Positions 24,061-28,082 of a stretch of DNA of 59,431 nucleotides are shown piece after piece; position 1 is the stretch's first letter, and every line of letters begins with the position of its first letter. Source of the DNA: Myxococcota bacterium (GTDB lineage: Bacteria > Myxococcota_A > UBA9160 > UBA6930); the NCBI GenBank assembly GCA_036560185.1, contig DATBRS010000246.1:1-59431 (forward strand), in the 5' to 3' direction. Under the pieces are notes generated by a model, which was not told the DNA's origin, searched no databases, and saw only the letters and a program-made list of their open reading frames with translations. Made by a program: the position numbers and the translations under genes.

Positions 24061-24101
24061 TGCAGCATCGGCGCTGCAGGGGTGCAGGATTCGGCCTGCA
24101 C
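24061..24101. promoter_or_regulatory. Tandem palindromic enhancer-like sites (putative upstream activator sequences for the sigma54 activator)
   Basis: TGCAGC-atcggc-GCTGCA (24061-24078) and GTGCAGG-attcgg-CCTGCAC (24082-24101). Both have a 6-nt spacer and their centres are 22 bp apart. Confidence 0.7.
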
Positions 24102-24150
24102 TTTTGACGCGCGATTCGGCGCGCGGACGCCGCTGCGTGCGAATCAGCGC

Positions 24151-24166
24151 TGGCACGCCGGTTGCT
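24151..24166 (+). promoter_or_regulatory. sigma54 (-24/-12) promoter of the kinase-regulator operon
   Basis: TGGCACGCCGGTTGCT matches the TGGCAC-N5-TTGCW consensus with exact GG-N10-GC spacing. Confidence 0.85.
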
Positions 24167-24198
24167 CTTTGGACTCGTCCATGCTGCGATGGAACGCA

Positions 24199-25284
24199 AT
24201 GGACCAGCACCCCGGCGACTGGCGCGACCTGCGGCGCGCGATGCGCGACGCACGCCGCGCGGCGCGTCGAGCGCGCATGGGCGGCTACGGGCTCGCGCCT
24301 CGGCAAGACCTGACGCCCGAGCAGCGGGCCCTGCGCGACGCCAAGCGCGCCGCCGACGCGCGCATCGGCTTCCTGATCCACGGCACGATCTACGCGCTCG
24401 TGATCTTCGGAATCCTGATCAGCGGCGGCTTCGTGGCCGCGCTCACGACGGCGATCTTCTGGGGCATCGGCGTCGCCTCGCATTTCATCGCCGCGATCGC
24501 GGGGCCGGAGCTGCGCAAGCGCTGGATCGAGCAGCAAGTCGCGCCACGGGTCGTCACCGAGACTCAGCAACAGCGCCGCGATCTCGAGGGCGAGCAAGCC
24601 CGCCGCGTCCAGCGGCTCTCGGCTTCGCTCGCACACGAGATCCGCAATCCGATCACCGCGGCCAAGAGCCTCGTGCAGCAAATGGGCGAGGACCCGGCCG
24701 CCGCGGAGAACGTGAACTACGCGCAGGTCGCGCTGCAGGAGCTGGAGCGCGTCGAGCGCTCGATCGCGCACTTGTTGAAGTTCGCGCGCGAGGAGGAGCT
24801 GAAGCTGGCGAGCGCGCGGCTCGACGAGATCGTGATCTCCGCGCTCGCGACGCTGCGCGATCGCATGCGCGACCTCGGCGTGAAGCTCGAGACGGACACC
24901 GCGGGCGCCGGCGCTTTGACGTGCGACGCCGAGCAGCTGCGGCGCGTCGTGATCAATCTCGCGACCAACGCGCTCGACGCCCTGCGCGACGCGAAGACTC
25001 CGGCCCCGCGCCTGCGCGTCGCGGTCGGCGAGAACCTCGCGGGCACCGAGGCGTGGCTGTCGGTGCGCGACAACGGGCCTGGCATTCCGGCCGAGCATCT
25101 GCCGCGCCTGTTCGATCCGTTCTTCACCGCCAAGGACGGCGGCACCGGCCTCGGCCTCGCGCTCGCCAAGAAGATCGTGGACGCCCACGGCGGAACGATC
25201 GAGACGAAGAGCGAGCCGGCGCATGGCGCCGAGTTCGTCGTGACGCTGCCGAAGTCCCGGCCGAGCGCGGGAGCACAGGCGTGA
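24199..25284 (+). CDS. Sensor histidine kinase with N-terminal 2TM domain
   Basis: 2TM-like segment GFLIHGTIY...FWGIGVASH...RKRWIEQQV. H-box LAHEIRNP, N-box VVINLATNALDA, G1 VRDNGPGI, F-box LFDPFFT and G2 GGTGLGLA. The start could be 24181 or 24199. Confidence 0.92.
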   Translation: MDQHPGDWRDLRRAMRDARRAARRARMGGYGLAPRQDLTPEQRALRDAKRAADARIGFLIHGTIYALVIFGILISGGFVAALTTAIFWGIGVASHFIAAIAGPELRKRWIEQQVAPRVVTETQQQRRDLEGEQARRVQRLSASLAHEIRNPITAAKSLVQQMGEDPAAAENVNYAQVALQELERVERSIAHLLKFAREEELKLASARLDEIVISALATLRDRMRDLGVKLETDTAGAGALTCDAEQLRRVVINLATNALDALRDAKTPAPRLRVAVGENLAGTEAWLSVRDNGPGIPAEHLPRLFDPFFTAKDGGTGLGLALAKKIVDAHGGTIETKSEPAHGAEFVVTLPKSRPSAGAQA

Positions 25285-26759: not shown

Positions 26760-26775
26760 AGGCACGCGTAGGGCA
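26760..26775 (+). promoter_or_regulatory. Possible secondary sigma54 promoter upstream of pspA
   Basis: AGGCACGCGTAGGGCA has GG-N10-GC spacing and a good -24 element (GGCACG), but the -12 element is degenerate (GGGC instead of TTGC). Confidence 0.35.
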
Positions 26776-26809
26776 AGCGCGGCGCAGCGCGCGCCGCACG
26801 GAGGACTGG

Positions 26810-27556
26810 ATGGACTCGCACGATCGACCCGGCTTCTTCGCACGCCTCGGCTCCCTGATGCGAGGGCTCGGCTTCGGCTGGGTGCGCGATCGCGAGGAGC
26901 GCAACCCGCGCGCGGTGTACGAGCAGGCGATTCAGGCGCGCCTCGGGCAGTACCGCTCGCTGAAGGACGCCGTCGCCGGCATCCTCTACACCCGTAACAA
27001 GCTCGAAGCCGAGCTGGCCGAGCGCCGCCACGAGCTCGCTCGCACCGTCGACGACATTCGCCGCGCGCTCACGCGGAGCGACGATGCCGCCGGCCTCGCG
27101 CTGGTGCAGCACAAGCAGAACGTGCTGGCGGACGTCGAGCGCGTCGAGCGCGAGGTCGAGACGCTGCGCGGCGAGGCCGAGGACGCGAAGAAGAACCTGA
27201 TGCGCTTCCGCGAGGAGATCCGCTCGCTCGAGCACGAGAAGGGCCGCATGCTCGCGGCGCTCGCCAGCGCGCGCGCGCGCCGGCGCATGCACGAGGCGCT
27301 CGACGGCCTGTCGGTGGAAGCCGACGTGCAGGCGCTCGAGAACGTGCGCATGCACGTGCAGCGCTCCGTCGCCGCCGCGACGCTCGAGCGCGAGCTCGGC
27401 GCGGGCGACGAGACCACGCAGCGCATCCGCGCGCTGCGCCGCGAAGCGATCGAGGAAGGCGCACGGCGCGAGTTCGAGGAGCTGAAGCGCCTGCACGGCG
27501 CGCACAACGTCGCCGCGCTGGCGGGCCGCGAGGTCAGCGCGGGCGGGCTCGCGTGA
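26810..27556 (+). CDS. pspA: PspA/IM30 (Vipp1 / ESCRT-III-like) family protein
   Basis: N-terminal amphipathic helix GFFARLGSLMRGLGFGW, the conserved Pro in ERNPRAVYEQAI, long coiled coils, DDAAGLALVQHK and ALDGLSVEAD. GGAGG SD. Confidence 0.85.
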   Translation: MDSHDRPGFFARLGSLMRGLGFGWVRDREERNPRAVYEQAIQARLGQYRSLKDAVAGILYTRNKLEAELAERRHELARTVDDIRRALTRSDDAAGLALVQHKQNVLADVERVEREVETLRGEAEDAKKNLMRFREEIRSLEHEKGRMLAALASARARRRMHEALDGLSVEADVQALENVRMHVQRSVAAATLERELGAGDETTQRIRALRREAIEEGARREFEELKRLHGAHNVAALAGREVSAGGLA

Positions 27557-27590
27557 GCGCGCACTGCCGCGCGGAAGGTGGAGGGCTGCG

Positions 27591-28082
27591 ATGAGCACGG
27601 ACGCGCGCGCGCTCCCCGAATGGACCGACGCGCTCGCGCGTCCGCGCCTTCCCGCGCGGCAACAGCGCGACGACGAGCGCGAGTTCGCACCCGCGCTGCG
27701 CGCCATCGCGCGGGCCAAGAAGCTGGCTCCGCAGCTCCAGCTGCTCGGGCGCGTGCACACGTTGTTAGGCGCGGCGGCGCTCAGCGCCGCGCTCGGCGCG
27801 AGCGTCGTCCTCGGCGGCGCCGTGCTGTTCGCGAGCCCGGTACCGCAGTGGGCGCTCGCCGTGGGCGGGGCGCTGGTCGCAGCGCTCGGGCTGCTCGGCC
27901 TTCCCTGGCTCGCGTTGGGCTTCGGCCTGCGCCGGCGGCGCGCGTGGGCACGCACGCTGGGCTTCGTTTGCAGCGCCGTGCTCCTGCCCTTCGCGCCGCT
28001 CGGGACCGCGCTCGCGGCCTGGACGCTCGTGGTGTTGCTCGGCTGGAACCCGGCCCTCGCACGGGCGGCCGGGGCGGACTGA
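27591..28082 (+). CDS. Small multi-pass membrane protein
   Basis: About 4 hydrophobic segments and the motif LGFGLRRRRAWARTLG...LLPFAPLGTALAAWTLVVLL. GGAGG SD; lies 34 nt after pspA. Confidence 0.7.
   Translation: MSTDARALPEWTDALARPRLPARQQRDDEREFAPALRAIARAKKLAPQLQLLGRVHTLLGAAALSAALGASVVLGGAVLFASPVPQWALAVGGALVAALGLLGLPWLALGFGLRRRRAWARTLGFVCSAVLLPFAPLGTALAAWTLVVLLGWNPALARAAGAD

Follow-up and report, generated by a model that had tools for sequence, protein, structure and literature searches.

A putative Psp-type operon with a predicted intramembrane-sensing kinase and a sigma-54 activator in uncultured Myxococcota

A PspA gene in a predicted operon with a two-component system

We analysed a stretch of 59,431 nucleotides (the whole of which we call the window; contig DATBRS010000246.1, forward strand) from the genome of an uncultured soil myxobacterium (4.32 Mb in 295 contigs, 91.6% complete), and describe here a locus that encodes a two-component system together with a PspA protein. 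Genes were called with GC3 frame plots and Pfam; raw lists of open reading frames (ORFs) are full of false frames because the G+C content of the region is about 72-78%. Four genes follow one another on the forward strand: a sensor histidine kinase (24199, or 24181, to 25284), an NtrC-type activator (25281-26693), PspA/IM30 (26810-27556), and a protein of 163 residues with four transmembrane (TM) helices (the 4-TM protein, 27591-28082). The GTG start of the activator overlaps the stop of the kinase (GTGA). The genes lie downstream of a control region of 183 nt (24016-24198), which holds, on the same strand, two dyads that are putative binding sites for activator dimers, TGCAGCATCGGCGCTGCA at 24061-24078 and TGCAGGATTCGGCCTGCA at 24083-24100, and a sigma-54 promoter with -24 GG and -12 GC elements, TGGCACgccggTTGCT at 24151-24166. 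The original prediction, made from the sequence alone, had placed in 24061-28082 a new Psp architecture of four co-oriented genes behind a single sigma-54 promoter with its own enhancer. The contents of this interval are borne out, and promoter, dyads and gene order are conserved; its first position is the start of the first dyad and not of a gene.

For comparison, we fetched gene neighbourhoods from relatives of the same order (38), from a collection of species-representative genomes (80), and from a sister family in the same class (5), which left 93 distinct loci of the class after the removal of duplicates. The records of the named relatives are all metagenome-assembled genomes of uncultured 'Myxococcota' or 'Deltaproteobacteria' from soil, sediment and sea, a few of them evidently mislabelled. 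Kinase (one or two), activator and PspA genes follow each other on one strand in 84 of the 93 loci; three others are cut by contig ends and six are variants. The median gaps between hits are 30 nt from kinase to activator and 65 nt from activator to PspA. The linkage, whose absence from relatives would have told against the original prediction, is thus the usual state in the class.

The genes for activator and PspA are also gained and lost together. Among 61 relatives of the same order, 42 have an ortholog of this PspA and 19, small genomes included, lack it. Orthologs of the activator (66-91% identity) are easily told from paralogs (at most 52%), and one was found in 40 of the 42 PspA-positive relatives and in none of the 19 PspA-negative ones (Fisher p = 7e-14); in the two exceptions the PspA gene lies at a contig end. 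This joint presence and absence suggests several losses of the whole module, frequently in small genomes.

The encoded proteins

The protein encoded from 26810 was identified as PspA/IM30 by Pfam, profile and fold comparisons. It matches PspA_IM30 (PF04012) over residues 10-220 with 52.1 bits (cut-off 33.9), and a profile made from an alignment of 23 orthologs matches Vipp1/PspA chains of the PDB at positions 5-206 (E = 3e-11). Its AlphaFold model (predicted local distance difference test, pLDDT, of 78.5) has helices at 9-29, 33-88, 92-197 and 202-244, in agreement with an amphipathic helix at the N-terminus, the long helical hairpin after it, and further helices behind the hairpin. The top 17 Foldseek matches of this model in the PDB are all Vipp1/PspA proteins, and PspA 1-144 of Escherichia coli (4WHE) is among the fold matches (TMt 0.78, root-mean-square deviation 1.8 Å). 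The intact amphipathic N-helix that had been read from the sequence is therefore present, as helix 9-29 ahead of the hairpin. This is the sole PspA of the window genome.

The kinase starts with an arginine-rich cytoplasmic leader, followed by two TM helices (2TM, PF13239, 27.1 bits for a cut-off of 24.8), a coiled coil, HisKA (39.6 bits) with the H-box AHEIRNPI, and HATPase_c (100.6 bits); Pfam identifies no other domain. It has two close TM helices and no sensor domain ahead of the DHp, which is the layout of intramembrane-sensing kinases and agrees with the earlier assignment. The catalytic core is nearest to AtoS/ZraS-like families of NCBIfam, with scores below the equivalog cut-offs. About half of the loci of the class, from most of the genera (L040, L042-L045, L047, L054, L056 and some 45 others) have two tandem 2TM kinase paralogs before the activator. 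Both paralogs, HK1 and HK2, have the same intramembrane-sensing layout, and both have the arginine-rich leader and a TPEERAYREARR motif ahead of the first TM helix. In the kinase tree the second-position paralogs form a clade of their own (support 0.95) and the window kinase is of the first-position type (HK1), which suggests that the second kinase was lost in the genus of the window. A word-indexed protein search with the sensor region of the kinase returned close relatives only, and all matches listed by a search of proteins with the PspA profile were at least 52% identical; the reach of both searches stopped short of other phyla.

The start of the kinase gene was set by comparison within the genus. 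A block just 3' of the promoter, ATGCTGCGATG (within 24181-24201), has the same DNA sequence, wobble positions included, in all 7 members of the genus that were compared, and is followed by a Shine-Dalgarno-like GGGA or GGAA and a second ATG. Given this pattern, translation probably begins at 24199, with 24181 as the in-frame alternative, and the block is probably an initial-transcribed or promoter-proximal element.

The activator has a receiver domain (REC; Response_reg, 97 bits), an AAA+ domain with a GAFTGA motif (Sigma54_activat, 245 bits), AAA_lid_14, and a Fis-type helix-turn-helix (HTH; HTH_8, 37 bits). This is the domain set of the NtrC class of enhancer-binding proteins, and it bears out the claim of a receiver-containing sigma-54 activator. 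The nearest families are NtrC, AtoC and NtrX (about 440-450 bits in NCBIfam, all below the equivalog cut-offs). We assessed residue conservation in 81 distinct orthologs. All of them have D11, D54, T83 and K105, i.e., an intact phospho-acceptor pocket. There is no or almost no variation in the Walker A and B motifs, in GAFTGA, in the arginine finger and in VRQSLQQK, the recognition helix of the HTH, and the invariance of this helix fits the conservation of the dyad. The activator is not a member of the PspF family: the TIGR02974 model gives 270 bits where the cut-off is 443, with a match limited to the AAA+ core, a receiver is present, and the residue aligned with Trp56 of PspF is Arg or Lys, with variable neighbours. 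The original prediction had presented the Arg at this position as a distinguishing trait. The residue is indeed there, but Arg or Lys is the ordinary state of NtrC-class activators, so it says only that the activator is not PspF.

The product of the fourth gene matches no family of Pfam or NCBIfam. Its AlphaFold model (pLDDT 84) shows a long cytoplasmic N-terminal helix that runs into the first of the four TM helices and has no fold match in the PDB, and its homologs occur only in close relatives (37 clusters, all annotated as 'hypothetical'). We considered LiaI/LiaF, PspM (Rv2743c), DUF2127/DUF7144 and SLATT as possible identities and rejected them, because there were only scattered sub-threshold hits, one of them to SLATT just under the cut-off. 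Relatives of the protein match the Rv2743c family with E = 0.002-0.3, which falls short of the cut-off and may be due simply to TM composition. The gene follows pspA only in the family of the window (f1), where its start often overlaps the pspA stop, and this coupling makes its product a plausible membrane partner of PspA. The four TM helices that had been foreseen are thus present in the model, but the protein is not part of the general architecture: judged by its distribution, the gene is an orphan, family-specific accessory outside the core module.

Promoter, enhancer and the uniqueness of the control region

The two dyads of the window follow the pattern TGCAG-N8-CTGCA. Measured from the -24 box, the distal one starts 90 nt upstream and the proximal one lies about 68 nt upstream; their centres are 22 bp apart. 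The promoter fits TGGCAC-N5-TTGCW perfectly. We compared these elements in 80 distinct orthologous upstream regions. Every locus whose upstream sequence is long enough has a -24/-12 element ahead of the first kinase, with the consensus GGCACG-N3-CTTGCTCT; the density of sigma-54-like sites in the genome leads one to expect 0.006 of them in a 350-nt interval. In 55 of the 80 regions a distal dyad of the form YGCA-N10-TGCR starts at -96..-84 (chance expectation about 7e-5 per 13-nt interval), a second one lies at -80..-50 in 54, and 35 regions have both. By phylogenetic footprinting, the region thus has the make-up of a textbook sigma-54 control region, its dyads keeping a fixed spacing to the promoter.

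Even taken separately, these elements are few in the window genome, with only 24 TGCA-N10-TGCA dyads and 158 sigma-54-like sites. Their combination is unique: in the whole assembly, the only site with a dyad 40-250 nt upstream of a sigma-54-like site is the one described here, which has two dyads. On this evidence the module looks dedicated and self-activating.

Several other genera (L040, L042, L044, L047 and others) have an AT-rich IHF-like motif between dyads and promoter (TAA-N4-TTGAT or TAAC-N3-TTGATTT), with the -24 box about 25-50 nt downstream. We rejected it as a general element, since the strict pattern occurs in 12 of the 80 regions and in neither the window nor its genus.

Distribution in the phylum

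This PspA subfamily is present in 110 of the 301 sampled genomes of the phylum. We fetched 40 further neighbourhoods across Myxococcota and analysed 38 of them (L188 and L189 were left out), of which 33 belong to other classes and 5 to the sister family in the window's own class. In the 33 loci from other classes, where PspA is 31-43% identical, we found no kinase or activator within about 7 kb of PspA, except for a weak kinase match (29%) downstream in L166, and no sigma-54-like site placed as in the window operon. In the sister family, three of the five loci keep the full order of kinase, activator and PspA, and two are variants (L180, L183). Judged by these neighbourhoods, the wiring is, within Myxococcota, a trait of one uncultured class.

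Some loci have additional copies or neighbours of pspA. In family f8 there is a second, short and divergent PspA-like ORF (G039:C1:4964282-4966095; G047:C201:30273-30638; G054:C420:2943-3362), with 34-38% identity and, in two cases, an in-frame TGA. In G039 it adjoins a second ortholog of the activator (68% identity). The second copy is either a duplicated module or a remnant of one. L153 and L154, from a family of another class (f46), have two tandem PspA paralogs that are 38-42% identical to the query and have no kinase or activator nearby, and in L174 (f38) pspA is followed by an ORF of 620 residues.

Comparison with known Psp systems

PspA/Vipp1/ESCRT-III proteins are universal membrane-repair machines. 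To our knowledge, the control of PspA production is known for three wirings only: PspF/PspA/PspBC in enterobacteria, LiaFSR in Firmicutes, and ClgR in mycobacteria. The locus shares traits with each of them. As in the enterobacterial Psp system (E. coli, Yersinia), a sigma-54 promoter with an enhancer would drive pspA, the activator is an AAA+ protein with GAFTGA and a Fis-type HTH, and PspA would be the effector. However, the enterobacterial pspF is divergent from pspABCDE, whereas here the regulators are in one predicted operon with pspA and a histidine kinase provides the input. Furthermore, PspF has no receiver and is controlled by PspA via W56 (in the SRWQGPF loop), whereas this activator has a REC with the invariant D54 and R or K at the position of W56. 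None of the proteins of the locus matches PspB or PspC, and the claim that pspB, pspC, pspF and liaF are all missing holds for the locus, within which it was checked.

As in the Bacillus LiaFSR-liaIH system (and VraTSR), an intramembrane-sensing kinase with two TM helices and no extracytoplasmic domain would govern a PspA homolog, the PspA gene has a gene for a small multi-TM protein beside it, and the system would be autoregulated. The protein families are different. LiaS has HisKA_3 and HAMP and works with a LuxR/NarL-type regulator at sigma-70 promoters, whereas this kinase has HisKA (PF00512, NtrB/AtoS/ZraS-like) and is paired with an NtrC-type sigma-54 activator. The Lia system has the inhibitor LiaF with its Toastrack domain; at the window locus we found no LiaF or Toastrack and no significant LiaI-LiaF-TM match, the 2TM domain being PF13239. 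The locus is therefore not of the Lia (LiaFSR) type.

Other systems are alike in fewer traits. The mycobacterial ClgR-PspA-Rv2743c-Rv2742c system also has a gene for an integral membrane partner after pspA, but its regulator has a Cro-like HTH, and it has neither sigma-54 nor a kinase. Among whole-protein families, kinase core and activator best match those of the NtrBC, AtoSC and ZraSR systems, with which the locus also shares an NtrC-like TGCA...TGCA dyad enhancer and a probable autoregulated operon. The proteins described here differ from them by scores below the equivalog cut-offs, by a sensor that is a bare 2TM hairpin, and by the PspA operon as the only visible target. In a former 'deltaproteobacterium', Desulfovibrio vulgaris, PspA is also under sigma-54 control, through a deltaproteobacterial PspF-PspA system (DVU2989 with DVU2988-2986). 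DVU2989 is listed as a single-component regulator without N-terminal domain (PMC4641369) and, unlike the window locus, has no kinase.

Two large surveys of Psp systems, Ravi et al. 2024 (PMC11237479) and Popp et al. 2022 (PMC9239133), describe PspF without receiver, NtrC-like factors with ACT or PAS domains, and pairs of kinases and REC-wHTH regulators. A kinase and a REC-sigma-54 activator together with PspA are reported neither in PMC11237479 (text and supplementary neighbourhood table), nor in PMC9239133, nor in the sigma-54 regulome of Desulfovibrio (PMC4641369). The two surveys include no example from Myxococcota, and our searches of the full-text literature found no closer system. This agrees with the remark, made from the sequence alone, that the combination was not recognisable as a characterised one.

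The locus would thus represent Psp-type membrane-stress control in a variant wiring, well defined in sequence. The module unites sigma-54 and an enhancer with an intramembrane-sensing kinase, elements hitherto assigned to separate solutions. Protein-protein anti-activation would be replaced by phosphorylation, which raises the question of whether PspA is still a sensor or regulator, or is an effector only. The carriers are uncultured, and all functions given here are inferred. Yet the module is compact: with three core genes, a single promoter and dyads of known position, its reconstruction in a laboratory host should be feasible and would make it possible to ask what stimulus a bare 2TM sensor responds to.

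A model of the circuit and its alternatives

We regard it as probable that the locus is a dedicated, positively autoregulated membrane-stress module in which the kinase acts on the activator, and the activator on a sigma-54 operon that includes pspA. Since periplasmic, PAS and HAMP domains are all lacking from the kinase, the 2TM hairpin, with the arginine-rich leader before it, would be its sole input, and the signal would be a disturbance in or at the cytoplasmic membrane. The histidine of the H-box would be autophosphorylated and the phosphate passed to Asp54 of the activator. The phosphorylated activator would assemble on the two dyads, and its GAFTGA loop would remodel the sigma-54 RNA polymerase at TGGCAC-N5-TTGCT. 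We infer that kinase, activator and pspA are co-transcribed. The single transcript, which in this family would also include the 4-TM gene, would encode the regulators themselves and thereby lead to positive autoregulation. PspA would then polymerise on the damaged membrane, as do other PspA/Vipp1/ESCRT-III proteins, and the 4-TM protein would probably anchor or recruit it.

A number of observations weigh against this model. The effector gene is the last one, behind those of low-abundance regulators, which is an unusual design for a protein made in bulk. No rpoN (PF04552, the DNA-binding domain of sigma-54) was found in the 295 contigs of the 91.6%-complete window assembly. The gene is present in all 8 genomes of the same genus, which makes an assembly gap likely, and in 28 of 31 relatives; its absence is probably such a gap. 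The sequencing runs that hold the stretch are of soil metagenome DNA only, and the RNA evidence from one metatranscriptome had to be rejected: the reads map to the conserved AAA+ core only and have many mismatches, which indicates that they come from other organisms. The spacer between activator and pspA is longer in the genus of the window than elsewhere, is structured, and might hide a separate control step. Finally, some loci depart from the usual order. In G036 kinase and pspA are adjacent without activator (L053/L143), and an ortholog of the activator (68%) lies on another contig (C42:32469-33824). In sister-family variants (L110/L183 of G089, L132, and L137/L180 of G236) a short, divergent kinase-like gene (27-43% identity) directly precedes pspA.

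One of these kinase-like genes, that of L183, has a perfect sigma-54 promoter of its own, TGGCACGGCGGTTGCT, after the activator gene.

The place of PspA in the circuit might be more than that of an effector. We can conceive, as a speculative extension of the model that we think has a limited chance of being correct, that the 2TM kinases, rather than the activator, are the target of feedback by PspA or by the 4-TM protein. Free PspA would dock on the arginine-rich/TPEERAYREARR leader or on the hairpin and hold the kinase off, and its recruitment to damaged membrane would release the kinase. If this were true, phosphotransfer to a sigma-54 activator would serve to report the state of an ESCRT-III polymer. 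This would be a third, mechanistically distinct solution of Psp signalling, with the widespread and unstudied 2TM domain PF13239 as its sensor element.

In a first alternative to the model, PspA would be mainly the regulatory partner or brake of the kinase, titrating the kinase or the 4-TM protein much as PspA acts on PspF and LiaF on LiaS, and the output of the two-component system that matters for physiology would be elsewhere. The enterobacterial PspA is a known anti-activator in the literature, the conserved cytoplasmic leader of the kinases, with its arginines and TPEERAYREARR motif, could dock a partner, and the last gene of the operon is close to the regulators in position and stoichiometry. 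Still, we find this unlikely: the operon's own promoter is the sole dyad-plus-sigma-54 site of the 91.6%-complete assembly, so that no other target is visible, and PspA retains the full effector fold with its amphipathic N-terminal helix. Moreover, the roles of brake and effector are not exclusive.

It is less probable still that the linkage is synteny only, with pspA transcribed from a sigma-70 or other promoter of its own in the spacer and regulated apart from the two-component pair. What speaks for such a promoter is confined to the genus of the window, where the spacer is about 100-240 nt long and has conserved blocks and hairpins. In the window it also contains a weak GG-N10-GC match, aGGCACgcgtaGgGCA (26760-26775), which we considered as a second sigma-54 promoter and rejected, because it occurs in this genus only, is missing from L051 of the same genus, and coincides with a conserved GC hairpin, falling on its 3' arm. 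In loci of other genera the spacer measures 10-120 nt, and we found no conserved promoter before pspA there; a search for sigma-70-like promoters between 23900 and 29100 of the window found none. The concerted gain and loss of activator and PspA also argues for regulation by the pair.

The third alternative, that the module is no stress response but a switch for membrane biogenesis or development, with a constitutive, Vipp1-like role and turned on by a metabolic or cell-cycle signal, has in its favour that Vipp1 proteins are the closest solved relatives in sequence and fold and that many NtrC-like activators serve development in Myxococcota, but is hardly credible given that there is no thylakoid-like system, that the module is dispensable and repeatedly lost (it is absent from the 19 of 61 relatives mentioned above), and that an intramembrane-type kinase without ligand-binding domain better fits envelope sensing.

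The spacer and the flanking genes

Two GC-rich hairpins in the spacer before pspA (26740-26805) show conservation within the genus but not beyond it. The second (GCGGCGC-AGCGC-GCGCCGC, 26779-26797, forward strand) ends 2 nt before the strong pspA Shine-Dalgarno sequence GGAGGA (26800-26805, forward strand). In 7 sequences, conservation of its structure is weakly supported by a single compensatory change, from GC to AU, and a single wobble. On this thin evidence, the hairpin might be an element for mRNA processing or stabilisation that raises PspA output.

Downstream of the 4-TM gene, an enoyl-CoA hydratase is encoded at 28154-28942 on the forward strand. We did not retain it as a member of the operon: it follows the operon only within the family and was taken as synteny of close relatives. 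A convergent FHA-domain gene lies beyond it on the reverse strand (from 28976). On the other side, a CvpA-like (colicin-V-production-like) membrane protein is encoded at 23086-24015 on the reverse strand, divergent from the operon, and no sigma-54 site was seen facing it. In the genus of the window this gene abuts the dyads. Beyond it lies a sulfotransferase gene on the forward strand (21986-23074), and the synteny of the two is kept in the genus and in some members of the family.

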